DNA from: a candidate division WOR-3 bacterium
GTDB lineage: Bacteria > Hydrothermota > Hydrothermia > B15-G9 > WFZT01
Length of the DNA: 34,130 nt
NCBI GenBank assembly: GCA_027053075.1
Contig: JALUEE010000084.1
Span: forward strand, 1 to 34,130
Direction: 5' to 3'
Below are positions 15,982-33,793 of the stretch, in pieces; positions within the stretch are counted from its first letter, which is position 1; each line of letters opens with the position of its first letter. The notes beneath the pieces are model-generated. The model saw only the letters and a program-made list of their open reading frames with translations, had not been told where the DNA came from and did no database searches. The translations under genes and the position numbers were made by a program.

Positions 15982-16056
15982 ACAGAGTTGTATTTATACA
16001 TCAGATTACATATATAATAAAGCAATTTCTAATTCGAACAATTTCATCCCAAATTA

Positions 16057-16542
16057 CTAATTACTCACCCTTCGTAAGAAATTCAAAAGATCTTTGAGGA
16101 GATTAGGCAAATTGTTCCAATCTATAAGTTCGTTCACAATATACCGTATGAAAGCACCGTCATCGCTGTACTTATAATCATTTTGAATTTCCTTAAATGT
16201 AGACTTGGGATTATTAAACTCGTAACCAAGCCAAGATAGCAAAAATCCTTCACAATTATTGGGAGTTAGCACAAGTGTATAATTTCCCCACAAAAGTTGA
16301 GTTGCAATGTTTTTAATTTTTGGCAAATCGATTTTTACTCTGTCCTCATCAACAATAATTAATTCACCATTAAAAAATATGCTTCTGTCATCTTGAAGTC
16401 TTACTTGTTCTTCTAATTTCGGCAAAACATTCCCCTTACTAATAAGTTTTTCAGTACGAATCCGAATCCCCGTTTTTTGTAAAATTGCCTCAATTAGAAC
16501 AATATGGCACTTGTCTTCTCCAAGTATTTTTACACTTTTCAA
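16057..16542 (-). CDS. Small TOPRIM-like protein (DUF4276/DUF3226/RloB-like), putative nuclease
   Basis: Strand plus Glu (ILGEDK), DxD after a hydrophobic strand (LIIVDED), NCEGFLL, NPKSTF. TTG start overlaps the ATPase stop (TTGA); GAGGAG SD. Confidence 0.55.
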   Translation of the reverse strand: MKSVKILGEDKCHIVLIEAILQKTGIRIRTEKLISKGNVLPKLEEQVRLQDDRSIFFNGELIIVDEDRVKIDLPKIKNIATQLLWGNYTLVLTPNNCEGFLLSWLGYEFNNPKSTFKEIQNDYKYSDDGAFIRYIVNELIDWNNLPNLLKDLLNFLRRVSN

Positions 16543-17831
16543 ATTAACTCCTCAACTTTCTTTGCATATTCAGGAAATTCTTTTATAATTGCCCCCTCAC
16601 CTGTGTCCTGGACAAGCCACCAATACTCTCTGGGGACAGATTCCGAAATCATTGGAGAATGAGTGGCAAGGATTATCTGAATCCTGTCATCTTTAGCTTC
16701 ATTTACAAGATTTTCAATCCACCAAGCGAGTCTCCCAGGGTGAAAGCCATTTTCAGGTTCGTCTATTGCAATAATCGAGGGTTGTTCAGGCAAATTTAAA
16801 AAGGATAGATACGCAAGAATGCGCAGTGTTCCATCTGAAACAGTTGCAGCAGGATGTAACCCTTTGTTGTCTTTTATTAGCAGTTTCACATTATGGATTC
16901 CTTCCAGCTCGTAAAGTTGTAGTTGAATATCCTCAACTTCGCTAACATAAACCTGAAGGCTATATAAAATCTTCTTGAATTTTTCAGGATGTGAATTCTT
17001 AAGCCACCACAAGAAGGAAGGCAGGTTCTGGCCATCTTCCTGTAATTCTTTTTTATAACGCTGTGATGGTGATTTAAGGACATCAATGTTAAGCTTAAGA
17101 ATTTTTATGCCTTTCCAAATATCCATCCAATCATTGTAGTTCCCTTGATAGCTAACCATTTCTTCTGCCTGCTGATAAAATGTATATTTATCTTCTTTGT
17201 CATAAGTGCCGCTACCAAGGGTTATCCATTTACCATCTTTGGTCCAATGCAATGACATATAACCTTTGAATTCATGATTTCCATTTTGGGTGAAATTTAC
17301 CTCTATTTCAATTTTATCACATCCCGTGGACACAATTGCAGCAGGATTTGTGGCATATCGATTGATTTCCTCAAGAAAGGCTTCTGGGTTCCCGATATGA
17401 GCAAGTTTTATCAATTTGAGAGCCTCAAGAATCGCAGTTTTCCCTGATGCATTAGCACCAAATATTGCGTTAAATTTTTTTACATCCTTCCATTCAAAGT
17501 TTATAAGATTTTTATAGCCCCTAACTTTTATGTTGTTGAGGCGCCAGATTTTTGGCCTTGTTTCGAGAAAATTCATTAATTCATGCTTCCATTCAGGAAG
17601 CATGAGATTGGTAAATTCAAAAAGCTGAGGGTTCTTAAAGTTTTTGGGTAATTTCCCGAAGGCTTCATCAACAAAACTTGTGGTCAGGACTTCAATACCT
17701 TCGAGATCTAAACAAATTTTTTTATCCCCTTTCTTTAAGATTTCAACAACTTTTCGGTTTAAAAGTTTACCTTTATCTCTTGTATTGGCAAATGGACTTT
17801 TTATTATCTCTTTAACCTTGATGACCTTCAT
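16539..17831 (-). CDS. Fusion: STAS-like (DUF4325) domain plus AAA_21/AAA_15-type ABC ATPase
   Basis: aa 1-90: TRDKGKLL..LDLEGIEVLTTSFVDEAFGKL. Then IKVRGYKNL, Walker A GANASGKT, signature VSDGTLR, Walker B/D-loop IDEPENGFHP, H-loop ATHSP. Confidence 0.85.
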   Translation of the reverse strand: MKVIKVKEIIKSPFANTRDKGKLLNRKVVEILKKGDKKICLDLEGIEVLTTSFVDEAFGKLPKNFKNPQLFEFTNLMLPEWKHELMNFLETRPKIWRLNNIKVRGYKNLINFEWKDVKKFNAIFGANASGKTAILEALKLIKLAHIGNPEAFLEEINRYATNPAAIVSTGCDKIEIEVNFTQNGNHEFKGYMSLHWTKDGKWITLGSGTYDKEDKYTFYQQAEEMVSYQGNYNDWMDIWKGIKILKLNIDVLKSPSQRYKKELQEDGQNLPSFLWWLKNSHPEKFKKILYSLQVYVSEVEDIQLQLYELEGIHNVKLLIKDNKGLHPAATVSDGTLRILAYLSFLNLPEQPSIIAIDEPENGFHPGRLAWWIENLVNEAKDDRIQIILATHSPMISESVPREYWWLVQDTGEGAIIKEFPEYAKKVEELI

Positions 17832-17832
17832 T

Positions 17833-18624
17833 TTAAGCCCTCTTAAAAAAGAATCCTGTGCTTGTTCCTTTCCAGTATCCTTTCACCTTACCAGCAGTCT
17901 CAGCCCACGGATACGCCATGTAAAACCCATTGCCAGACCATAGCCAGAAGTTACCACCCATTTCTGTTGCAAAAGTCTTAACTCTCCATAATCCATTACC
18001 GCTGAACCTCTTTTTATCTCTTGTAACTCCTCTCTTAGCAGCCAATTGAACAGCAATAGAATCAAAAGGGACATGATAATCCTTATTTTGCGATAGACTC
18101 TCCCTTATACCAATTCCTCTGTCGCTTATGGCAACTTCTATGTTGGTTCTGTATTTTTGAGCCATTGCCACACACCATGACGATTCACCTGCATGAATTA
18201 ACACATTTTCGAGTAGTTCAGATGTGGCTTCTAATATGTTTACCAGCGTGCTTTTTTCGATTTCATTTTCAAACACTACTTTCAAATTTTTCATAAATTT
18301 ATCCATGTCTTCTTTCGATTTTATCAGAGAAAGTTCTACAAATCTACCTTCCGGAGGATTCCGCCTTTGCTGAAAGTTAAACTCAATTCCTGAAATTTTG
18401 TCAAAGTTCATTCGTTTCAGGTAACCCAAAAGTTCACTACTTTGTGGCAAAATTACTTTAGGCTTATGTTCTCTTTTCTCATAGAGAAAGGTGGCCAGTG
18501 GAACAAGTGCTGAAGGGTATATAAAGTGCACATCTCTAATATTGATTTCCTTTATTAATCCCAGATTAAAATGGGCTAAGACAAGGTCTTCAATCCTTAA
18601 ATCACCTGAAAAAACCAATTTCAT
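17833..18624 (-). CDS. GHKL/HATPase_c protein, RsbW/SpoIIAB-like Ser kinase type, with degenerate STAS-like N-terminus
   Basis: N box SELLENVLIHA, G1 ISDRGIGI, G2 SGNGL, terminal WKGT. N-terminal VHFIYPSALVPL..YLKRMNF. No TM segments or DHp helix pair. Confidence 0.82.
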   Translation of the reverse strand: MKLVFSGDLRIEDLVLAHFNLGLIKEINIRDVHFIYPSALVPLATFLYEKREHKPKVILPQSSELLGYLKRMNFDKISGIEFNFQQRRNPPEGRFVELSLIKSKEDMDKFMKNLKVVFENEIEKSTLVNILEATSELLENVLIHAGESSWCVAMAQKYRTNIEVAISDRGIGIRESLSQNKDYHVPFDSIAVQLAAKRGVTRDKKRFSGNGLWRVKTFATEMGGNFWLWSGNGFYMAYPWAETAGKVKGYWKGTSTGFFFKRA

Positions 18625-18630
18625 TTAAAA

Positions 18631-18660
18631 ATTATAATGGCATTTTGGAAGACAAAACAA
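18631..18660 (-). promoter_or_regulatory. Putative promoter of the kinase-STAS/ATPase-TOPRIM operon (leaderless)
   Basis: TTGTTT, 18 nt, TATAAT; -10 lies 6 nt before ATG 18624; no SD. Confidence 0.45.
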
Positions 18661-18762
18661 TTATAGGGGGAATCTGAAACAATGAAGAAATTTTTCCAAT
18701 TCTAAAAATTGTTTGTAAGCGAAATGAAATAGGCAAAATCTTCCGTACGAGTGCCCGAACAC

Positions 18763-18797: not shown

Positions 18798-20177
18798 ATG
18801 AAGAAAATTCTACTCGCAGAAGATGATTTGAAGATGGAAAAGTTGTATTCCGGAGCCCTTAAGTCTCTGGGGTACGAAGTAATCCCGGTGAGAACCCTGA
18901 AAGAACTTAAAAAACTATCACGGGATAAATATTCACTTGTACTTCTAAACAGGAATTTTGACGGCGCACACACGGATGAACTTCTCAAAAAAGGTGAGCT
19001 ACAATTCGAATCTCCTGTCGTCCTGATCTCAGCAATGACAGATGCAGAAAGAGCGGCCGAGCTCATAGAAAAAGGCCTCATCCTTGACTTCTGGCACAAA
19101 GCTGAGGGACCCGAAGGACTGGTACTCGAGGTCAAAAAGATAGAGCGCGAAGTTAAGGATATTCGCCCGCAGCTAATGGAATTTTACAACGGTATATTTG
19201 ACCTACCTCATATGAGTAGACGGCCTGTTAAGAGGAAAATCATCGCCTATTCCCCAAACATGGTAGACGTTCTGAGGAAAGCCATCGGATTCGCAAAGAG
19301 TAAGAATCTCAACGTTCTCATTGTAGGAGAACCGGGCACGGGCAGAAGCGCTCTCGCTGACTATCTTGTTGAACAAATGGAGGGCAAACCAGAAACCATC
19401 AAAATCCCGCCGGGACAGTGGGGGATGCTTTCCGAAATAGAAGAGACACGTATTAAAGTAGGCTATGGCCAGGAAGCTGAAAAGACCGAGGAAATAGTTG
19501 TCATTATTGATGGAATTGAAGAAATGCCACGTGACGAGCAGGTTTACATCCTGGGGCTTGCTAAAGAGGGTGTCGCAAGGTTTGTTAGCATTGCCAGCAC
19601 TAACATCTTCAGAAAACTTAAAGAAGGCTCATTTTCACAGGAGCTTTATCAATACATATCCGGTGGACTTCTCATGATTCCTCCCCTCAGGGAGAGATTG
19701 AAAGAAGAAATAGCCCTTCTTATTGAGCATTTTCTGCGCCTTGAGGAGCATGAGAGGAAGCTAAAATTGGGATTGTCGGAAGAGGCTTACAGGATTCTCA
19801 CGTCTTATCCGTGGCCCGGCAATGTGGTAGAATTGAGACTAAAGCTCAAGAGTTCAATTGCCACACTGTTACCCGGAAGGAATATTATTCAATCCATCAA
19901 TCTTCCACAGGAGATAATGCAGTTTGTCCAGCAGGGCAACGATGTTGTATTCAACAAGTTTCTTCAGAGTTTCATAACTTCCATTGACTACGCAAGTATC
20001 AGCTATGATCAGATCGAGAAATGGGCCTTTAACTTGAAGTATACTCTTTTAAAACTCATCATCGAACAGGCGGGATACAATTTGGAGCTTGTGAAAAAGT
20101 TTTTGAAGACCAACAAAAATATCGAAAAAGACGAGGTAGTGGCGAAAATTCTTGCGGAGAAAGATGAGAAAAGATAG
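18798..20177 (+). CDS. Degenerate NtrC/PilR-like regulator (receiver plus sigma54-activator-like AAA domain)
   Basis: KKILLAEDD receiver, NVLIVGEPGTGRS, IPPLRER, SYPWPGNVVEL. Key catalytic residues are substituted. Confidence 0.8.
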   Translation: MKKILLAEDDLKMEKLYSGALKSLGYEVIPVRTLKELKKLSRDKYSLVLLNRNFDGAHTDELLKKGELQFESPVVLISAMTDAERAAELIEKGLILDFWHKAEGPEGLVLEVKKIEREVKDIRPQLMEFYNGIFDLPHMSRRPVKRKIIAYSPNMVDVLRKAIGFAKSKNLNVLIVGEPGTGRSALADYLVEQMEGKPETIKIPPGQWGMLSEIEETRIKVGYGQEAEKTEEIVVIIDGIEEMPRDEQVYILGLAKEGVARFVSIASTNIFRKLKEGSFSQELYQYISGGLLMIPPLRERLKEEIALLIEHFLRLEEHERKLKLGLSEEAYRILTSYPWPGNVVELRLKLKSSIATLLPGRNIIQSINLPQEIMQFVQQGNDVVFNKFLQSFITSIDYASISYDQIEKWAFNLKYTLLKLIIEQAGYNLELVKKFLKTNKNIEKDEVVAKILAEKDEKR

Positions 20178-24575: not shown

Positions 24576-26189
24576 CTACCATCTTTTCGAGATTCTCATT
24601 GTGGCATAGAGTTCCTTTGAGACACTGGTGGAGCTGATCTTTGTCAATGTCGTCTGAAAGCTAAAATTAAACTTATATGGAAGTGAAACGTAGAGATTGA
24701 AATTACCAGAAATAGACCTGACACCAGCCCCATTAGTGTAATTTACACCTGCCCCTGGTTTAAACTTCCCGGCTGTGTATGAAAGGTTTAGTCCCGCGTT
24801 TTGCTGGCTCTGTTTGCCCATAACTGTCTCGAAATTGCTATGGCCCAATGTGGCCGTAAAGCTCAATGGAAATGGAAAAGAAAAAGTCTCACTCAACGAC
24901 AATGTGTAGAATTTTGAGGAGTTGTGTAAAGTATCAGGAAGGTTGGACGATTGATAGCTAATCGTTAGCTGGCTCGTTATGCTCGTTGAGCCCAGATATT
25001 TTGAATAACCGATATTTGCCCCCACCAGTAGTGTAGTGTTCTCCGAAATGCTTTTCTGCTCGCTGTTATTAACGTAAAGCGTGAAATAAGGAAGACTATA
25101 AGATATGAAGCTCACATCAACATGGGTGGTTTTAAGCTCTGTTGTTACCTCCTTTGTCTGGAGTAGATTATCATGCTCCTCATGATAGGAAACCCCCAAT
25201 CCGAGTCTATTATGCCAAATCCGCGTTCGCGTTTCTATGGTGTACTTGAGGAGGTCTTTTCTCGTGGAGTACAAACCAAATGAGACGAAGCCTGGGCCAA
25301 TCATCGTAGCCCTGAGCTTCACCTGTGTTGCCCCTGTTTTAAAACTCGCTGTCCCTCGCGCAGCATAGTCAACATGGGTTGAGACACGAGGCTTAAACTT
25401 TTTCTCCGCCCAGTCAGGAATTCTATCATCGTGAACAAGCGGAGCGGTAACATCGCTCGTCAATTCACTAACTGCCACCTCTCCCCTTATATTCATCCTT
25501 CCTTTATAAGTGAATCCAAAGTCTGTTCCTAAAATGAAGTTTTCCATGGGCGCAACGGAGAGTGTGGATTCGACAACATTGGTATCTGGCTGAAAATATG
25601 TAAAAGGTGGGTTAATTGAAAGGGTATCATCCCACGAGTGCATGAAAGTCAGGTGAAAATGGGTGGCACTCTTCTTGCCAATCCCGACGCTGATCCCTCG
25701 TATTGCTCTCTTATACTGCGCGTTCAAAGAGTCGGTTCTGTATGCTGGACTGATTGCTCCACCGGTGTAAGAGAAATAAAAAACTCCCAGTGTGTATTTG
25801 ATTGTTAATCCCCTCACCCGAATTCCAGATATGGTGAACTGGGAAAACACAGGGAAGGCATCTCCAATGGTGATTCCCGGAAAAGACAGCAGGAAATTCG
25901 GAATCCCCGGAATAGCGGGAATCAGCCTCTGGGGACTGAATTTCATTGCGAATTGGTTTAGCCACTCTTTTAGTCTTTCTTTTGCGCTACCGATTGAAAA
26001 ATGAAAGAAAACTGGCATTCCATAGATATAAAATTGGGGTGAAAAATTCAATCGGAATGTTCTCACGGGAGTGGTTTTTGAGCTATCGAACAGGGTATCC
26101 ACCACAAACTGAACTTCAAAGTACCCGGATGTTTTAAAAGGGCCTTTGCCAACGGTACTTATTAAAAGCAGCAATATGGGCAGTTTCAT
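24576..26189 (-). CDS. Putative outer membrane beta-barrel protein
   Basis: Signal-like N-terminus, alternating amphipathic strands, C-terminal YATMRISKRW ending in an aromatic residue. Confidence 0.7.
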   Translation of the reverse strand: MKLPILLLLISTVGKGPFKTSGYFEVQFVVDTLFDSSKTTPVRTFRLNFSPQFYIYGMPVFFHFSIGSAKERLKEWLNQFAMKFSPQRLIPAIPGIPNFLLSFPGITIGDAFPVFSQFTISGIRVRGLTIKYTLGVFYFSYTGGAISPAYRTDSLNAQYKRAIRGISVGIGKKSATHFHLTFMHSWDDTLSINPPFTYFQPDTNVVESTLSVAPMENFILGTDFGFTYKGRMNIRGEVAVSELTSDVTAPLVHDDRIPDWAEKKFKPRVSTHVDYAARGTASFKTGATQVKLRATMIGPGFVSFGLYSTRKDLLKYTIETRTRIWHNRLGLGVSYHEEHDNLLQTKEVTTELKTTHVDVSFISYSLPYFTLYVNNSEQKSISENTTLLVGANIGYSKYLGSTSITSQLTISYQSSNLPDTLHNSSKFYTLSLSETFSFPFPLSFTATLGHSNFETVMGKQSQQNAGLNLSYTAGKFKPGAGVNYTNGAGVRSISGNFNLYVSLPYKFNFSFQTTLTKISSTSVSKELYATMRISKRW

Positions 26190-26199
26190 TTAAAGTCTC

Positions 26200-28413
26200 C
26201 TATGGGAGTTTCCCACTTTTTGCCGCTGAAGGAACGGACCTGTTGCCACTTTTGTGCAGTGCCTGGACTTTGTACCAGTAGGTTTTGCCCTTTGTTATAA
26301 GCTTATCTTTAAAATGGTCTGACCTTATTAGCGGACTTATTTGAATATAACCTGTGGTTGGATTTTCGCTTCTAAAGACCAAAAATCCAAGAAGGGTAGA
26401 ATCGTAAGCCGGGGTCCACCAGATGATAAGGCCATCTGATGCCGGTGTTACACGTCTTATGTGTGACCTTGTCGGAAATTTGAAGCTAAAAGTAAATGTC
26501 CCCACACTGGCAGAAGGAGTGCTGACATTCCCACCAACATCCGCACATCTCACCCGATAAAAGTAGTGTTCTTTCGGTTTTGCTGTTGTATCAAGAAATG
26601 AGAAAATGGTGTCCTGATCCCAGATTGTGATAGAGGGAAGACTTTCGCATTCCACAGTTGTTGGAAATTTTAATTTTTTGCTCAGTGTATCCCAGACTGT
26701 AGTATCTGATGTATCCGCTCTCTCCACGATGAATCCAAAGAGGTCCTGAACCGGAGGTGCAACCCATTGAACAAGTATAGCTCCGTCCCTTGCCTTTAAT
26801 CCAACAATTAGCGGCGGTGGCGGGGCGACTCTTTCTCTCAACCTCTCACAAACGGTTTTCGAGGTATCGCTCAAATTCTGGCTGTTATCATAAGCTTTGA
26901 CAGTATATCGGTAGCATACAGGTGATCCGGATGGAACCGTTCTATCAATAAAGGATGTCGAGTCCTCATTATCTACAGTCCCCACAAGATGCATGGAATA
27001 AATCATACGTATTTTTTCTCTCAATAATGTGTCTCCACAAATTCCACGGTAAATCAGGTATCCTGCGACATCAGGAGTGGATACCTTTCTCCACTCGAGA
27101 GCAATACTATTGGTGCGGCCGTGTGCTCGTAAGTTTGTTGGTGGCGGAGGTGGTGTTTTATCCTTTATCACTCCTCCAACGTGGGCACTCAGGTTACTTT
27201 CATTTCCCCAGTTGTCTATGGTCTTTATCCTGTAGAAGTACCCTTTGTCTTGATATGGAGAACCGAGTCCGTGGGTTGTATCTTTGTACGAGACGTTCAG
27301 GATCGTAGTATCGGTTGGCTGAGGGACCAATGAGGTTACGAGTGTGCCTATTGTGTCGTCAATTGAAGTGTACCTGTAAATTTTATAGCCTTTAATTCCG
27401 GAGATATCTATGTGGCCATCGTAGTCTTTTAATACCTTTTCCCATGTTATGTTAAGGCTGTCTCCAATGGCGGCCACGTGGATACTGGTAGGGCTTCGGG
27501 GAGCTGTAGAATCGTAAGAAGTACCCGATACCGTTATACTCGGTGGACTGAAACGACCTGAAATATCGAATGCCTTAACCCTATAGACATAAGTTGTGCC
27601 CGGGAATGGCCCTTTAAAGTGGACTCCATTTACAACATTATTGCTGGGCTTTGATCGATACCAGTACATCTGGTCCAGGAAACAGAGTTTCGTAGTATCT
27701 GAAAGGGTATCACCAGATGGACCAACCACACATTTGGACATTGTTGTCGGAAAATTAATTCGGATGAAAGTCCCTGTTCCTGCCTTTTTGCGCTCGACTA
27801 TATAACCCGAGGCACCAGTGACTGGCCTCCATCTTATCATTATCGAGGCGTTTCCAGGGATAAGCTCAACTCCAGCGGGTCGTGCAGGCGGTGTTATATT
27901 TCCTGCTACCACTGAAGTCTGGCATAATATCTCTGTTTCCACCCCTGAAGAATCGATACCTCTTAATGCGTAAAAATATCGCGTACCGTTTACGACAGAG
28001 GAATCAATAAACCCCTGTCCAATAGCAATGGCTATATAGATTTTCTGGAATGCGGCAGCTTTGACAGCGTATCTTCGTCGGTCCCTTTTGGACGCCATAA
28101 TTTGGGGTATGTCACACATTTCAGGTACAACCGACCATAAGCGCCTATACGCGGAAGAATCCTTGTGTAAGAAGTTACGAAAACTTGTACAGTCCTCTAT
28201 TATCCTTATGGTATCGTCATTCACCCTAATGAAATCTGTCCCAGATGTCCTTCGGTACAGGTTGTATCCGGGGTAGTAATCTGAAGTGTTCCAGATAATG
28301 AGTATGCGATTTGTGTCTGGAACAGCGACAATTACGTTGTGTTCCTGTGCCATTAGCCTCAATGGGCTTACAAACAAAAGTATTCCAATAAATGCAATGA
28401 TTTTTTTATTCAA
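26200..28413 (-). CDS. Exported multi-fibronectin type III protein (about 6 repeats)
   Basis: Repeated PPxxP..W..GYxIYR..D..YxYRVxAxDxxGNxS. TTG 28413 gives the signal peptide MNKKIIAFIGILLF and overlaps the upstream stop. Confidence 0.85.
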   Translation of the reverse strand: MNKKIIAFIGILLFVSPLRLMAQEHNVIVAVPDTNRILIIWNTSDYYPGYNLYRRTSGTDFIRVNDDTIRIIEDCTSFRNFLHKDSSAYRRLWSVVPEMCDIPQIMASKRDRRRYAVKAAAFQKIYIAIAIGQGFIDSSVVNGTRYFYALRGIDSSGVETEILCQTSVVAGNITPPARPAGVELIPGNASIMIRWRPVTGASGYIVERKKAGTGTFIRINFPTTMSKCVVGPSGDTLSDTTKLCFLDQMYWYRSKPSNNVVNGVHFKGPFPGTTYVYRVKAFDISGRFSPPSITVSGTSYDSTAPRSPTSIHVAAIGDSLNITWEKVLKDYDGHIDISGIKGYKIYRYTSIDDTIGTLVTSLVPQPTDTTILNVSYKDTTHGLGSPYQDKGYFYRIKTIDNWGNESNLSAHVGGVIKDKTPPPPPTNLRAHGRTNSIALEWRKVSTPDVAGYLIYRGICGDTLLREKIRMIYSMHLVGTVDNEDSTSFIDRTVPSGSPVCYRYTVKAYDNSQNLSDTSKTVCERLRERVAPPPPLIVGLKARDGAILVQWVAPPVQDLFGFIVERADTSDTTVWDTLSKKLKFPTTVECESLPSITIWDQDTIFSFLDTTAKPKEHYFYRVRCADVGGNVSTPSASVGTFTFSFKFPTRSHIRRVTPASDGLIIWWTPAYDSTLLGFLVFRSENPTTGYIQISPLIRSDHFKDKLITKGKTYWYKVQALHKSGNRSVPSAAKSGKLP

Positions 28414-31400
28414 GATAGAACCCCCTTGTTGAACTGATTCCAAAATTCAGGTCTGCACTTGCACAGAGCAACTCAAGCACGCATCCTCTGAGAGTAAGAG
28501 AACCTGATATGGCAAACGGACACGGTCCCAGAAACTCTGCCTCGGCCGAGCCGGAGGCTGAAACGACTCCCCAGAGAATTTTACCACCAAGGTATATTCC
28601 AAAATCACCGATTACGTAAGGAAGCAAAGAGCCACTACAGGCACTTGCACCGGCAGGGCCATTGACCATAGCCCCGAGGCCAAAGAAAAGCTCCATCTCT
28701 CCTGAGAAAATTCCAAGATCGAGCGAATACTGGCGATCAAGAAATGCGTAAAATCCAGTGAGGGTTGCAGGAAGATTTCTCATATCAATCCCAAATCTTC
28801 CCGTTTTGTTCTTTAAGACCCATGCTCTTTCCTGTGGAACATTTACACCCATAAAGAATCCCCCACTGATGCCCATTCCTGCTCCACTCATGCCCATTGA
28901 AAATCCGAACTTGATCTCTGCATCACCCTGAATAAACGAGTAAGTGCCCCCGGCCCTGAAGGTAAAATGTCCCTTTGCTGAAGCATTACTCGTAAATGCA
29001 AGTGGAATTCCGCCGCCCAGGTTAAACAGTCCCTCAATATCTCCTTCAAACCAGTGCTCCTGTCGGTTATTGGTGAACTTCGCATAAGCTTCTACCTCTA
29101 TGCCAGCAATGTGCTTGAAAATGAATTTGCCCTGGACAGTGAACTTTGATATGGTGGGAGTGATAGAAAGTGTCATTCGAGCGGCAAGTCCTGTCCTTGT
29201 GGTAAAAAATCCGTTTGCCGAAGGTGATACCATCCCTCCGATTACCAGTCTTTTGAGTGAGTCTCCTTCGATGTACGCGCATCCCCAGAGGTCCTTCACA
29301 TTGGCAAGGTCCATGTAAGCAGTTCCCACACCTTTATTGGAGGTCTCGGTCACACAGATAGCCGAGTAAGCACTATCTATCTTCACCGACGCTTTCGCAT
29401 CTGAGCCGTTAAGATACCAGACTCCCTCGATTTTCCCGGTGCCCTGAAATGCGTACTGATTGATGGTGTCATAATACACAGTATCGAAGTCGAATGTTGC
29501 TGTGTTATGTCCCCAATCTCTCTTGAGGCCGAAAGTTTTCGGGTCTTTGATATAGACAAATCTTCCGTAGTAGGGATTTGACGTGGAATCAAATTTGTGA
29601 TCAAAAATAGTGATTGCAGTGTCCGCTTCACCGAAGAATTTAAAATGCATCTGAGACCGTACTACGAGAGCTCCGTACCTTGGACCTCTGGCAGTGGAGT
29701 CGTATCTCGATAGGGCAGCCGAGTCCAGAGTGATCGGGAATCCATCGAACTTTTGAAAGGCTGAATTTTTGTTGAAATACAATTTCCCAACACGACCATC
29801 AGCGAGAAATTCGCCCCATTGGAGGTTAAAGGGACGGGAAAAGTGTCTGTTTTCTGAAATATCGGCATCGGTAAAAACCACCTCACCCTGATGAGCACTC
29901 ACATAGCCTGACCTTGATGTAATTTTCACACCCCAATAATCGAGCTCCTGTGGAGTGGAGAATCTCACCTCACCACCTACTATATAACCCAAGGATGTGA
30001 TTCCCATTTTTATGAAGGGAAATTCGATGCTGCTGGGACGCGGCACTTTTTTGATCTTTCCATCCATTCGAGCGTCAAAAACAGAATTCCCGGCAAATCT
30101 TATGAAAAATCTACTCGTATCCTTTGGTGAACCTTTGATTTCTACGTCAAAATACTTGGATGCAAGATATCCTGCTTCACCAATACGTCCCATCTTCTTT
30201 CGGATAACAGTCATGCTTTCCCGAAGCTCAAAGTTTGCAGTCACTCCTTGCTCGTCCAGGATTACCCAGGCTCTCAAATTTCCGCAGGGTATCTTTGCCC
30301 TTCTTCCCTTTAAGTCTGGTGAGATAATGCTGAGAGTGTCCCTGTGCCTGCCTCCGGGCTTGATAACCATTCCTACAAAGGTGTCGAGAGCCGTAGAGCT
30401 CGGATTGATGAGTGAATCACCGCTAATTAGAGAGAAGTATCGTCTTGGTGGTGCTGTAAATCGAAACTTTACTTCACCTTCGTGAATGAGGACGAATTGT
30501 CCCCAGAAAATGCGAGTCTTGCTTATGTGTCCTGTTGCAGTTAACGTCAGATTGGAATCTACCGTTATGTTGTGGGATGTCACATCAAGACTATCTGTGG
30601 CAGAGGCAACCATGATTCCATTCTCGCCTGCAGGAACACGGATGCGTCCTGCGAAGTTACCTGAATCAACTCTGCATCTGGTAATTTTTAGCGTGCCTGT
30701 TTGTGCCTTGATACTGAAGCCATAAGGAGCGACCGTCCTGAAATTCATCGGTTGACTGAGATGGAGATCAACACTCAGACCTGAGTCGCTCAAGGTTGCA
30801 TTTGAAAACGTATATCTTCCATAAAGAAATCCTGTATTTGAGACCAGCAACGCATTTCTCTTGATAGTATAACCACTGTCAAATTTTATTCCCGTCCAGG
30901 CAAAAAGAGCAGGTGGGATAAAAATATGCCCGCCAGGAGGTTTGATTCCATGTGGGGGCAGTGTGCCTCCACCTCCGTGTGGTGCTGCTCCACCACCTGA
31001 GAAAGTTTTTATGGTGATATCACCCACCGGCTTTATGAATATGTCGTAAGTACCCAGTCTAAAAGGTGCCACTGATGACCCTGAAACAATCTTGTAAAAA
31101 CCACCGAGGGTATCAATGGATGTGGTAAAGGGGCCGAGCTGCCAGAAATCGGGTGAGCCCGTGTCGTGCAGACAGGGATGAGTCACAAAAAGTGTAGCTT
31201 TTGACGAATCGGGCCAGAGCATCACCTGCGTAACATGAAGCTTCATTCCTGACCTTGAAAATACGATCGGATGACCTGGAGTGACAGTAATTTGCCCTGT
31301 GTCTATAAACGCTGTATCTCCAAGGGAGCTGTCCGAGTGAAGATGAGTGAATGTAAGATTGAACCATACCCTGGAGCCAGAAGATTCATCTTTGAAGAAG

Positions 31401-32308
31401 GATCTTCCGCTTCCTGAAAGCGAAGATAAAGAAGAACCGGTGGAATAAGATGACACTCTCACGAGGAAATTACCGATTTTGAGATAATTCGGGAGCAAGA
31501 CTATCATGTGAAACCTCGGTATCACGGTGAATTTTCTTATCTCGCTTTTTCCGTTGTTCTCACCTATAGGATTGCCTCTCACATCAATTGCCTGTACCTG
31601 CCAGATGTAGTTATGATTAACGTGCAACGCTGTGTATCTTCGAGAGTAAATGAAGTTCGTAGCTGGTGTGACTTCAGATAAAACCGGCCGCCTTGAAGTT
31701 GCCGTATTGAAGTCCTCACCTGGAAACAATTCCCAGATCTTTATTCTGTACCTTACAGAAACACCAGGTGGCACCGTTACTGGAGTCCATCTAAAAACGA
31801 GTCCAAATAACATGACACTATCCTGATCCTCTGGATGGACCAGTTGAGGTGGTGAGGGTGCAACAATCAAAAATCTCGCGCAGGTATGCGCAAGTGATGG
31901 ACCTCCAGAGGCAGGAATTACATCAACACAAACTCTGTATTCACCCTCGGGAATATTTCCTGTTCGCCGTATTCTCTCTGCCATAATAGAACTGTAACTT
32001 ACAGAGGACCAGTCAACCAACTCTGTATTTGTAATAAACATTGTTTGTCCGGGAGAAAATTCGAGGACGCGACTCCTGCCCTGAAGAATGACCCCATGCC
32101 TCGTCTGGGTCAGAGTGGCATTAAGGTAAACTCTGACTCTCTCTGTTCCTGTGTAGGTTATTCTGAGTGCAACAATGTTTGGTATGGTGCGCCACTGGTT
32201 TATCTGCTGTGGTGGCCTTGGTAAAACATTTAAGGTCACTCTCCAGAATGGCGAGGCATTAAGGGATGAAGAAAAGACAATTGCAAGCACTAAAAGAATT
32301 TTTTTCAT
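28406..32308 (-). CDS. 1300-aa exported beta-rich protein with TANFOR-like/FN3 N-terminus
   Basis: Signal peptide ending SLNA; GNIPEGEYRVCV..C..PPQLVHP..FRWTP..YIWQVQA..NGKSEIRKF, recalled as the TANFOR-protein pattern; long Gly/aromatic beta-strand body; GGAGG SD. Confidence 0.7.
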   Translation of the reverse strand: MKKILLVLAIVFSSSLNASPFWRVTLNVLPRPPQQINQWRTIPNIVALRITYTGTERVRVYLNATLTQTRHGVILQGRSRVLEFSPGQTMFITNTELVDWSSVSYSSIMAERIRRTGNIPEGEYRVCVDVIPASGGPSLAHTCARFLIVAPSPPQLVHPEDQDSVMLFGLVFRWTPVTVPPGVSVRYRIKIWELFPGEDFNTATSRRPVLSEVTPATNFIYSRRYTALHVNHNYIWQVQAIDVRGNPIGENNGKSEIRKFTVIPRFHMIVLLPNYLKIGNFLVRVSSYSTGSSLSSLSGSGRSFFKDESSGSRVWFNLTFTHLHSDSSLGDTAFIDTGQITVTPGHPIVFSRSGMKLHVTQVMLWPDSSKATLFVTHPCLHDTGSPDFWQLGPFTTSIDTLGGFYKIVSGSSVAPFRLGTYDIFIKPVGDITIKTFSGGGAAPHGGGGTLPPHGIKPPGGHIFIPPALFAWTGIKFDSGYTIKRNALLVSNTGFLYGRYTFSNATLSDSGLSVDLHLSQPMNFRTVAPYGFSIKAQTGTLKITRCRVDSGNFAGRIRVPAGENGIMVASATDSLDVTSHNITVDSNLTLTATGHISKTRIFWGQFVLIHEGEVKFRFTAPPRRYFSLISGDSLINPSSTALDTFVGMVIKPGGRHRDTLSIISPDLKGRRAKIPCGNLRAWVILDEQGVTANFELRESMTVIRKKMGRIGEAGYLASKYFDVEIKGSPKDTSRFFIRFAGNSVFDARMDGKIKKVPRPSSIEFPFIKMGITSLGYIVGGEVRFSTPQELDYWGVKITSRSGYVSAHQGEVVFTDADISENRHFSRPFNLQWGEFLADGRVGKLYFNKNSAFQKFDGFPITLDSAALSRYDSTARGPRYGALVVRSQMHFKFFGEADTAITIFDHKFDSTSNPYYGRFVYIKDPKTFGLKRDWGHNTATFDFDTVYYDTINQYAFQGTGKIEGVWYLNGSDAKASVKIDSAYSAICVTETSNKGVGTAYMDLANVKDLWGCAYIEGDSLKRLVIGGMVSPSANGFFTTRTGLAARMTLSITPTISKFTVQGKFIFKHIAGIEVEAYAKFTNNRQEHWFEGDIEGLFNLGGGIPLAFTSNASAKGHFTFRAGGTYSFIQGDAEIKFGFSMGMSGAGMGISGGFFMGVNVPQERAWVLKNKTGRFGIDMRNLPATLTGFYAFLDRQYSLDLGIFSGEMELFFGLGAMVNGPAGASACSGSLLPYVIGDFGIYLGGKILWGVVSASGSAEAEFLGPCPFAISGSLTLRGCVLELLCASADLNFGISSTRGFYLE

Positions 32309-32317
32309 TGTGACCTC

Positions 32318-33793
32318 CTACCTGTTTCTTGAGAAGCTGAATAAAGCCCCGTCCCAGGATATAGGGGCAAGAACCACATACTGCTTGCCAGATAACAGGG
32401 ATTTTCTGGTCTCGATGAGTTCACTTTCACCGGAGGTGTATTTAATGAAATTTACCGTTACATCCTGCGGAAATTCGCTCATCAGGGTAACGGCCTCACC
32501 TTTTTCATCAAAGGTAGCTGCAAATTTTTCATTCTGACCAAGTTGGATGGGGGAGATTTTGAATGAATTTATATCGTCTCTATCAAAGATGTGATGGAGT
32601 GTAAGTCTTGCATAAACTGAGGAATTTTCAGAATTAAGTTCGACCATCTGGTAAGGGGAACCTAATCCGTTGACGGTCAACGAAAATGTTCCTCCGCCAG
32701 ATTCAGCTTCTAATTCGATGGCATGGTCTCCATCTGAGGAAACAAGGTACAGGGAGTCTTTTGCAGGCTTTATTGTGAATGTAAAATTGTGATTGTTGCC
32801 TCCTTGTATGATAAGCATATCCCCACCAGCATTATCACCGTTTATCGGCAGCCATCTGACGATAGCCGTACCATTCTTTTCAACAAAAAGATCATTTGGC
32901 CCAAGCGTGAGACCAGTGGTGTTATCAGTAACTTCCACGATGCGCCCTTTGTTCATAAAGAAAGTGGTAACGAGAGAAGCAAGGTCTGAGAGTAACAGAG
33001 GATTAGATGTGGGAAGAAGTACTCTTCTTGCTGGCACAGTGTATATAAATCCTTCAAAACGCTTTACTGGTGTCGTAGGCCAATCATAATGCCAGGAATC
33101 AACAAACGCATTTATGCTCACATAATTGCTATCATTGTCATAATAGCTTTTTGTTGAGAAATAAGGAAACGATGGGTCATAGACGTAAAGTAGCCATTCA
33201 TGGGCATGCTTGATGAGTTTGTATGGATAGATCGCGTGCATGCCGCCAAACCCACCTGGAGATGATGATTCACTAATGCAAACAACAGGTATTTCCTGCG
33301 AGGATAAATAGTAATCAGCCTTTTCCGCTGCCATCTGTGGGTCTGTGAAATAATGGTGAGATATAGCTTCAACTATTATACGAAGAACTTCAGTGGAATA
33401 TTGTCTTGCATAGAGAACCATTATTGCACGCTTCATCTGTGGCCAGTAGGCACCGAGTGTGTCCATTCCAGGTGCTGTATTATTTGGGGTGTACATTGAT
33501 AGCGGCGAGCACATCCCCATATAACCGCCCTCATCATAGACCACACCAGCGAGTGCGCTCATACCAAAGCAGACACCTCCTGTTGAATGGGACCTTATGA
33601 TGTTGTACAAAGAATTATCGAGGGGATTTGACGGCTGGACACCTATAAAGGCCTCTTCGAAATAATCCCAGGTCATTTCGAGTCCATAGTTATCAACGGG
33701 TAGTCCATGACGAGCAGGGAAGTTATCCTGTGAGGGGAGAATGTTTATAAACAACAGCATCCCCATTAATACCAACAACCAAGGCGATCGCAT
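32318..33793 (-). CDS. Exported papain/transglutaminase-fold thiol peptidase-like protein
   Basis: Signal peptide; candidate triad GGVCFGMS / HAIYPY / YVYDPSFP; beta-rich C-terminal half; GAGGAGG SD. Confidence 0.65.
   Translation of the reverse strand: MRSPWLLVLMGMLLFINILPSQDNFPARHGLPVDNYGLEMTWDYFEEAFIGVQPSNPLDNSLYNIIRSHSTGGVCFGMSALAGVVYDEGGYMGMCSPLSMYTPNNTAPGMDTLGAYWPQMKRAIMVLYARQYSTEVLRIIVEAISHHYFTDPQMAAEKADYYLSSQEIPVVCISESSSPGGFGGMHAIYPYKLIKHAHEWLLYVYDPSFPYFSTKSYYDNDSNYVSINAFVDSWHYDWPTTPVKRFEGFIYTVPARRVLLPTSNPLLLSDLASLVTTFFMNKGRIVEVTDNTTGLTLGPNDLFVEKNGTAIVRWLPINGDNAGGDMLIIQGGNNHNFTFTIKPAKDSLYLVSSDGDHAIELEAESGGGTFSLTVNGLGSPYQMVELNSENSSVYARLTLHHIFDRDDINSFKISPIQLGQNEKFAATFDEKGEAVTLMSEFPQDVTVNFIKYTSGESELIETRKSLLSGKQYVVLAPISWDGALFSFSRNR

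Follow-up and report, generated by a model that had tools for sequence, protein, structure and literature searches.

A Kinase, a STAS-ABC ATPase Fusion, and a TOPRIM-fold Protein Form a Candidate Phosphorylation-gated Immune Cassette in Uncultured Bacteria

Introduction

In two described bacterial systems, CapK/CapS and VapKSC, the output is switched on when phosphorylation of a serine in a STAS domain disrupts a contact between proteins (PMC13373217). Here we analyze a three-gene cassette that appears to join a switch of this kind to a different output. It occupies positions 16057-18624, on the minus strand, of a 34,130-nucleotide stretch of DNA from a candidate division WOR-3 bacterium (GenBank assembly GCA_027053075.1, contig JALUEE010000084.1, positions 1-34,130; this whole stretch is called the window below) and encodes a GHKL kinase (gene 1), a STAS domain fused to an ABC ATPase (gene 2), and a predicted TOPRIM-fold protein (gene 3). 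CapK, which combines a helix-turn-helix (HTH), a STAS, and a GHKL domain, is switched on in vitro by single-stranded DNA (ssDNA) and phosphorylates the repressor CapS, a STAS domain with a winged HTH (wHTH), and this phosphorylation splits the STAS-STAS dimer (PMC13373217; 9Z71-9Z73). The VapK kinase has no HTH; its activation by ssDNA and its phosphorylation of VapS, with release of the PIN toxin VapC, have been inferred, and VapKSC gives about 2-log protection against phage Bas42 that requires F54, S48, and the nuclease site (PMC13373217; 9Z7O).

The downstream half of the cassette recalls a separate group of systems, in which an ABC ATPase controls a TOPRIM nuclease. In PARIS the ATPase (AriA) holds the nuclease (AriB) until triggered, and tRNA is cut (PMC11464382); P2 OLD becomes active on dissociation of its tetramer and also cuts tRNA (bioRxiv 10.64898/2026.07.10.737580). 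The TOPRIM catalytic pattern consists of a glutamate after the first strand and a DxD motif after the third (PMC12065111).

Results

A STAS Domain Is Fused to an Intact ABC ATPase

Gene 2 (16539-17831, minus strand) is an open reading frame (ORF) of 430 residues in which a STAS domain (17556-17831; DUF4325 at residues 24-75, E = 8.5e-11) leads through a linker of a few residues into an AAA_21/AAA_15-type ABC ATPase (16539-17555, residues about 93-430; AAA_21 E = 2e-25), an arrangement that a preliminary description of this DNA had proposed and that our domain searches bear out. The STAS domain runs straight into the ATPase in all five copies found. The Walker A (G125-K131), signature (S332-D-G-T), and Walker B (D357-E358) motifs and H391 are intact and were invariant in the three copies aligned. 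The ATPase is HEC-01A/AriA/MAD3-like: its best PADLOC model is HEC-01A (E = 4.8e-37), with the AriA model weaker (E = 1.1e-26), and its sequence matches in the PDB are OLD (6P74) and AriA. For the other half of the protein, a profile built from four fused STAS domains alone gave VapS (9Z7O) as the top PDB match (E = 3.8e-4), and a wider STAS profile that included VapS-like rows reached CapS weakly (E = 0.31).

The STAS motif of gene 2 reads T50-T51-S52-F53. Ser-48 of VapS falls in column 51 of the alignment, whereas Ser-54 and Ser-58 of CapS, which directly precede a phenylalanine, fall in column 52. Ser-52 is invariant in the five fused copies, and Thr-51 is kept in four of them and replaced by methionine in the copy from a genome of the same genus (G001), which makes Ser-52 the better candidate for the phosphosite. 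The preliminary description had also singled out Ser-52, and the choice fits our evidence; the residue occupies the conserved Ser/Thr position on STAS helix 2. We calculated dN/dS between the G001 copy and that on a metagenome contig (L040), since against the window copy the ratio is undefined with synonymous sites saturated, and obtained 0.10 (kinase), 0.14 (STAS domain), and 0.12 (ATPase, as far as it was sequenced). The STAS domain is under purifying selection, and the fusion has been kept in copies whose synonymous sites are saturated.

Gene 1 Encodes a VapK/CapK-type Kinase

Gene 1 (17833-18624, minus strand) encodes 263 residues, with a Pfam HATPase_c match over residues 131-231 (28.2 bits against a cut-off of 26.4) preceded by a STAS-like domain (residues about 1-100). 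The latter assignment rests on alignment, the AF2 model made from three sequences having a pLDDT of 43; this part of the protein aligns with VapK-like kinases from kinase-STAS-PIN loci. There is no HTH, because 263 residues leave insufficient length for one. The GHKL motifs comprise an N-box (E139/N140), a G1 box (D168-x-G170-x-G172), and a G2 box (G209-x-G211-L212), and Phe-34, Lys-157, and Arg-159 are predicted to line an ssDNA groove. All of these residues are invariant in the three copies aligned and in the five triad kinases compared. Phe-34 aligns with a phenylalanine of the VapK-like kinase L011, and its distance from Asn-140, 106 residues, equals that between F54 and N160 of VapK, where the local sequences are F-L-R-P-N-A and E-I-Y-A-N (F34-I-Y-P-S-A in gene 1); this correspondence was drawn by eye and through L011 as a proxy rather than by direct alignment with the published sequence, in whose appendix the numbering is 5 lower than in the main text of PMC13373217. 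Lys-157 and Arg-159 lie at or beside the basic positions K180/K181 of VapK and K237/K239 of CapK.

By its sequence, gene 1 is a VapK/CapK-type STAS-GHKL kinase with the HTH-less layout of VapK. It had been described before as a plain RsbW-like kinase within a SpoIIAB/RsbW partner-switching circuit, a view that we do not retain: the layout and key residues are those of VapK and CapK, the matches to HATPase_c_2 (E = 0.091) and spIIAB (E = 0.0063) fall below their cut-offs, and the closest circuits are those of the CapK/CapS and VapK/VapS/VapC family (PMC13373217). A PDB sequence search with gene 1 gave no match. A profile built from the triad kinases has, as its best distant matches, kinases that adjoin STAS or STAS-wHTH genes (L037, L038, L033, L039), and two of these loci precede ubiquitin-like (Bub-type) operons. 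When 26 kinases were placed in a quick tree, the five from the triads grouped in a single well supported clade outside the VapK-like clade; long branches meet in this tree, so that it does not settle their placement relative to CapK-like kinases.

Residues 62-235 of gene 1 (window 17836-18624) also match the N terminus (71-245 of 1750) of the DISARM DrmA model PDLC02567 in PADLOC, with E = 6e-20, a hint that a CapK/VapK-like kinase is fused to some of the DrmA helicases.

Gene 3 Is Predicted to Be a Stand-alone TOPRIM Protein

Gene 3 (16057-16542, minus strand) starts with TTG and encodes 161 residues without a Pfam or PADLOC match; in NCBIfam there is a transporter match below the cut-off only. 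The AF2 model is of high confidence (pLDDT 91.4), and in a VIA structure search of 48,161 chains its best match was PH0156 (Z 12.5, r.m.s.d. 2.8, 157 residues aligned), which we take to be a member of DUF3226. OLD TOPRIM domains held ranks 2 and 3 (Z 9.9 and 9.8), followed by Argonaute MID domains (Z at most 9.0). The acidic residues E9, D65-x-D67, and E98 are invariant in all five copies. The fold and these residues agree with the TOPRIM-like protein proposed in the preliminary description, and on the structural model gene 3 is a stand-alone TOPRIM-fold protein and a predicted nuclease effector. Foldseek ranked PurE first, but with an r.m.s.d. of 13-15, and placed PH0156 at rank 20 with the best TM-score (0.59); the VIA ranking was preferred, and PurE was rejected.

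The family is tiny, with three matches among 31 candidates and four among 1.84 billion representatives, one of which (P0075, a repetitive protein of 776 residues) is spurious and was removed. Homologues of gene 3 match HEC-01B weakly (E = 1.5e-4 to 0.026), the window protein itself does not, and a gene 3 profile compared with five HEC-01B-matching proteins gave a probability of 7.5% (E = 0.0046). One Atlas cluster matching gene 3 (0.94) has DUF4276 on 14% of its members. These matches suggest a weak sequence link between gene 3, HEC-01B, and DUF4276. No AriB, HEC-01B, or DUF4276 structure was among the fold matches of gene 3, an absence that excludes nothing.

The Triad Recurs in One Order of Uncultured Bacteria

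The triad kinase is present in 3 of 61 relatives and gives strong matches in 3 of 272 genomes of the phylum, all from one order; two further weak matches are VapK-like. G001 carries the full triad, a genome from another family (G009) has the kinase and the fusion, with a different upstream gene and with gene 3 cut off after its start by the end of the contig, and L040 holds the kinase and fusion up to the end of the contig. Identity to the window copies is 57-58% for the kinase, 43-47% for the fusion, and 45-48% for the TOPRIM protein (measured for G009 via the proxy P0076). Contigs from two other studies (runs X2 and X4) cover the cassette at about 93% identity, and this strain is the probable source of P0083, P0080, and P0002, which all come from contigs of 3199 bases; the TOPRIM protein is its most diverged part (81% against 90-93% for the others). 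The preliminary description had raised the prospect that the triad is unique to this assembly or chimeric; its occurrence, or that of the fusion, in independent assemblies speaks against both. A decayed copy in G007 (L010, 9384-10543) has lost the kinase, the STAS domain, and the first half of the ATPase; the rest of the ATPase is frameshifted, and the TOPRIM frame is open with its acidic residues kept. This remnant has a chromate-transporter-like gene on one side and a tRNA-thiolase-like/XerC-like pair on the other. In G001 the cassette is followed downstream by a GC-richer stretch (L004, 3073-3651) with repeated units, seen only as peptide patterns in spurious ORFs.

Searches elsewhere added little. 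A word search with the STAS region retrieved only itself among 34 candidates; DUF4325 was found on 2 of 69 matches to the whole of gene 2 (itself and the G001 protein) and on none of the best 8 of 30 Atlas matches, for which at most three families each are given. Pattern scans found the fusion at one locus (G001) among 73 matches in the genome collection, and gave one true fusion and one free STAS (2 of 465 matches) in metagenomes. None of 83 plasmid records covered 80% of gene 2 or matched the STAS domain or gene 3, and viral contigs yielded no match for genes 1 and 3 and two ATPase-only matches. All of these searches depend on words or patterns in common with the query, so that a distant fusion of independent origin would escape them. 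Within their scope the fusion is rare, real, and selected, and it was found intact in a single order of uncultured bacteria.

DUF4325 itself is less restricted, occurring in 21 of the 272 genomes at 26 places, three of which are the fusion. Eleven of the other loci were inspected: four pair STAS with PIN (a kinase adjoins in three, and the PIN domain is Pfam-confirmed for one), two have a kinase and STAS without a visible effector, three encode single HTH-GHKL-DUF4325-type proteins, and two are apparently spurious. L013, L017, L023, and L024, from other families of the phylum, are kinase-STAS-PIN loci that resemble plain vapKSC, and restriction-modification-like genes flank or adjoin two of them, L017 and L023.

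We inspected 5 of the 83 plasmid records, each with an unfused relative of the ATPase. In each of the five the next gene matches HEC-01B (three are annotated DUF4276), and no kinase or STAS gene is annotated within 3.5 kb; one of these loci is part of a type I restriction operon, and another belongs to a prophage. On a Meiothermus plasmid (L068, 1-7516), a HEC-01 pair and a DUF4433/macro domain pair interrupt a type I restriction operon, where they separate hsdS from hsdR.

The Cassette Resembles Several Systems and Belongs to None

The strongest likeness upstream is to VapKSC (PMC13373217; 9Z7O). The order of kinase, STAS, and nuclease is the same, with the nuclease, toxic in VapKSC and predicted here, encoded last; both kinases are HTH-less STAS-GHKL proteins with the phenylalanine and asparagine at equal spacing; and the cassette STAS is homologous to VapS. 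In contrast to VapS, which ends in a short inhibitory helix, the cassette STAS is fused to an ATPase; its invariant serine lies one position later, in the CapS register; the effector is TOPRIM-like, gene 3 having no PIN match in Pfam, whereas VapC is a PIN protein; and the kinase falls outside the VapK-like clade of the quick tree. CapK/CapS (PMC13373217; 9Z71-9Z73) likewise has a STAS-GHKL kinase upstream of a STAS fusion protein with a serine directly before a phenylalanine, and the N-terminal motif and N-box of gene 1 resemble those of CapK. However, gene 1 lacks the HTH and has arginine in place of W68, the cassette STAS lacks a wHTH, and its output would be an enzyme complex, whereas CapS controls a separately promoted downstream immune operon.

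The downstream genes are closest to HEC-01, a pair of ABC ATPase and DUF4276-like TOPRIM protein (bioRxiv 10.1101/2024.01.29.577857), sharing an ATPase of the HEC-01A group with intact motifs and a small separate TOPRIM gene directly downstream, but in every intact copy found the cassette ATPase carries a STAS domain at its N terminus and has a kinase upstream. PARIS (PMC11464382) and P2 OLD (bioRxiv 10.64898/2026.07.10.737580) also use an AAA_15/21 ABC ATPase to control a TOPRIM nuclease, and OLD TOPRIM domains are among the top fold matches of gene 3; in those systems the ATPase is itself the sensor, of phage proteins or ssDNA hairpins, whereas in the cassette sensing would pass to the kinase. 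The cassette TOPRIM protein is about half the size of AriB and matches no AriB model in PADLOC, and, unlike OLD, the ATPase and TOPRIM domains are separate genes and not a single chain. With SpoIIAB/SpoIIAA and RsbW/RsbV the cassette shares a GHKL serine kinase and a STAS substrate, through weak matches below cut-off, but its kinase carries an N-terminal STAS-like domain of its own, its STAS is of the DUF4325 type and fused to an ATPase, and it contains no sigma factor, phosphatase, or PP2C gene.

The preliminary description did not recognize this architecture as a named system. We too found no STAS-ABC ATPase fusion with a TOPRIM protein in print, in a search in which bioRxiv supplements and most subscription papers were not covered, so that a brief prior mention is possible; 12 of the 14 supplementary files of PMC13373217, searched for TOPRIM, AAA, and DUF4325, held nothing relevant. 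The claim needs narrowing, since defense gated by a kinase through a STAS domain is known and only the ATPase-TOPRIM output is new. Both halves are familiar, VapKS/CapKS on one side and a HEC-01/PARIS/OLD-like pair on the other, and the new part is their covalent coupling; the cassette looks like VapKSC upstream and like HEC-01, PARIS, and OLD downstream, yet fails membership of each.

The Cassette Occupies a Replaceable Segment

The cassette lies in a low-GC segment (15992-18746) whose flanks are 94-95% identical in DNA sequence to a sister species, G004, with the identity ending near 16000 and 18747. At the same site G004 has a gene for an FG-GAP repeat protein and one for an NmrA-like oxidoreductase instead of the cassette. 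Runs X2, X4, and X9 contain loose ends, at 15988 and 18747, with G004-type letters, and both alleles of the site therefore coexist in runs X2 and X4. A second loose end, at 18759 (runs X1, X2, and X4), has letters unlike either the window or G004 and suggests a third allele. In G001, G002, G003, and G005 the two flanking genes are not adjacent, or only one of them was found. No att-like or terminal repeats were seen at the borders of the cassette. The cassette is probably mobile, and the simplest reading is allele exchange by recombination in the flanks.

Discussion

The proposal of the preliminary description that phosphorylation gates the module fits this evidence, and the comparison with characterized relatives suggests how the gating could work; the steps beyond the anatomy we infer. 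ssDNA arising in phage replication or repair would activate the gene 1 kinase, which would phosphorylate Ser-52 of the STAS domain fused to the ATPase. At rest the ATPase would hold the TOPRIM protein inactive, as AriA holds AriB; phosphorylation would break an inhibitory contact, opening a STAS-held contact in the ATPase-TOPRIM complex, and the freed TOPRIM protein would cut a target that, by analogy with AriB and P2 OLD, is probably tRNA, so that growth of the infected or damaged cell stops. Two versions of the inhibitory contact can be envisaged. STAS contacts may keep an ATPase-TOPRIM oligomer shut, as in the inactive OLD tetramer, or the STAS domain may touch the TOPRIM protein directly, as VapS does VapC; we prefer the former because Ser-52 lies in the CapS register, where phosphorylation splits a STAS-STAS dimer. 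For the circuit as a whole, from ssDNA through the kinase and Ser-52 to the unleashed nuclease, we consider the chances evenly balanced. [quoted passage not shown]

Several observations weigh against this circuit. HEC-01 gave no protection in its one published screen (bioRxiv 10.1101/2024.01.29.577857). The C-terminal helix with which VapS blocks VapC has no counterpart, as the ATPase starts there, and the groove of the kinase differs from that of CapK, the W68 motif being present with the tryptophan changed to Arg-10 (lysine in L040). The open TOPRIM frame of G007, without kinase, STAS, or working ATPase, is a misfit for a protein that is lethal when free, unless it is unexpressed. Pairs of kinase and STAS without an adjoining effector gene occur (L037, L065). 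A defense island, finally, was not found: a Pfam scan of the 18 other ORFs of the window, several of them family-less, recognized no other defense gene, and the alternative cargo in G004 is non-defensive. The patchy, low-GC, and site-variable occurrence of the cassette is, for its part, typical of defense cargo.

Some of these points suit an arrangement in which the kinase-STAS module has been fused onto a HEC-01-like pair whose ATPase remains, like AriA and OLD, a sensor of a phage protein or DNA structure in its own right, with STAS phosphorylation merely tuning stability or having no effect on the nuclease. The existence of effector-less kinase-STAS pairs, the commonness of unfused ATPase-TOPRIM pairs that do not need a kinase, the retention of every ATPase motif, and the confinement of the fusion to one order would all suit such uncoupled modules. 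The fusion, its very short linker, and the gene order have nevertheless been kept despite saturated synonymous sites, the STAS domain has a dN/dS of 0.14 with an invariant Ser-52, and every copy found that lacked kinase and STAS also lacked an intact ATPase; we regard this arrangement as unlikely, though less so than the other rivals.

The cassette could instead be a general stress or dormancy module, in which DNA damage from heat, metals, or radicals at vents trips the same switch, with the nuclease acting to slow growth or to trim intermediates of DNA. The lack of antiviral activity of HEC-01 (bioRxiv 10.1101/2024.01.29.577857) and of a defense island at the window locus would suit such a role, the authors of VapKSC see an overlap of stress and defense (PMC13373217), and for an archaeal ATPase of the OLD family the reported role is in the cell cycle and not in defense (PMC12796447). 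Patchiness (intact kinase copies in 3 of 272 genomes), replacement at the site, and decay in G007 are, however, unlike a core stress function, and the TOPRIM protein is the most diverged part between two close strains (81% against 90-93%); we think this role rather improbable.

About as improbable, or marginally more so, is a switch of opposite polarity, with the kinase as antidote: steady phosphorylation of Ser-52 would keep the ATPase-TOPRIM pair off until a phage inhibitor, a fall in ATP, or loss of the cassette relieved it, and the ATPase would activate the nuclease as in single-chain OLD. The open TOPRIM frame left in G007 after loss of the ATPase N terminus fits a protein that is harmless alone, the 4-nucleotide overlap of the ATPase and TOPRIM genes resembles a split OLD, and the triad kinases, as their own deep clade apart from VapK-like proteins in the quick tree, need not have inherited the polarity of the latter. 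Against this, phosphorylation activates the output in both characterized relatives, and the predicted ssDNA-groove residues are conserved, as for an inducible kinase. An assembly artifact or a functionless, decaying accident, which the 114 contigs of the genome assembly and the one decayed copy might suggest, is largely refuted already, and we give it hardly any weight, as the same fusion occurs at 43-47% identity in independent assemblies, two other studies yielded contigs that span it at about 93% identity, and selection is purifying.

If the circuit of ssDNA-activated kinase, Ser-52, and TOPRIM nuclease is correct, the STAS domain would be a plug-in phospho-lock open to grafting onto partners as different as the repressor part of CapS, the antitoxin helix of VapS, and an entire ATPase machine, and the CapK/VapK family would extend from transcription and PIN toxins to such machines. 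Sensing delegated to a kinase would offer a handle on how an ABC ATPase restrains and releases its TOPRIM partner, given that one substitution, S52E or S52A, could set the state of the complex, on or off, with no need of a trigger from a phage, and it may explain why HEC-01-type pairs, tested without a known trigger, have displayed no activity. Its importance is limited by rarity, with intact copies in one order of uncultured bacteria.

Promoter, Composition, and Other Loci

The three ORFs have the coordinates given in the preliminary description, with 1 nucleotide (17832) between genes 1 and 2 and a 4-nucleotide overlap, TTGA (16542-16539), between genes 2 and 3, and AGAGG/GAGGAG-type ribosome sites precede genes 2 and 3. 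The cassette had also been called AT-rich, which agrees with its GC content of 36.5%, the genome having 43.9%; of 2209 genome segments of the same size, 1.3% are equally low. Its own candidate promoter, named at the same time, has partial backing. A consensus promoter scan lists no minus-strand site upstream of gene 1 (8 sites found against 10.4 expected by chance). By eye, a candidate (18631-18660, minus strand) has TATAAT 6 nucleotides before the ATG of gene 1, no ribosome site, and a weak -35 element (TTGTTT, 3 of 6 positions matching, 18-nucleotide spacer). The three other copies compared have TATAAT or TATACT 9-10 nucleotides before the kinase start, reading TTGTCA-17-TATACT in G009, so that a -10-like hexamer stands 6-10 nucleotides before the start in all four. 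A promoter with a very short leader, giving a nearly leaderless transcript, is likely from these motifs.

On the left the cassette is bordered by a gene for a polar amino-acid ABC binding protein, as described before; on the right the first gene is not the pilin-like one named in that account but a divergent response-regulator/sigma54-type ATPase gene (18798-20177), with the pilin-like gene beyond it. Farther along, window positions 24576-33793 hold four long minus-strand ORFs (537, 747, 1300, and 491 residues), of which the 747-residue one alone has a Pfam match (fibronectin type III, E = 0.001).

The genome of the window also encodes, on another contig (C27 of G000; L035, 1429-2523), a single-chain HTH-GHKL-DUF4325 protein whose STAS domain has no serine in the motif (G-Q-G-F-L-D-E). 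Proteins of this single-chain type account for 12 of the 26 tree members and form a clade of their own. The free STAS from the metagenome scan (L041, 151-609) shares the S-F-x-D-E motif of the cassette STAS and has a long N-terminal extension, and its gene converges with a Fic/Doc-like gene (708-1112), recognized by eye.

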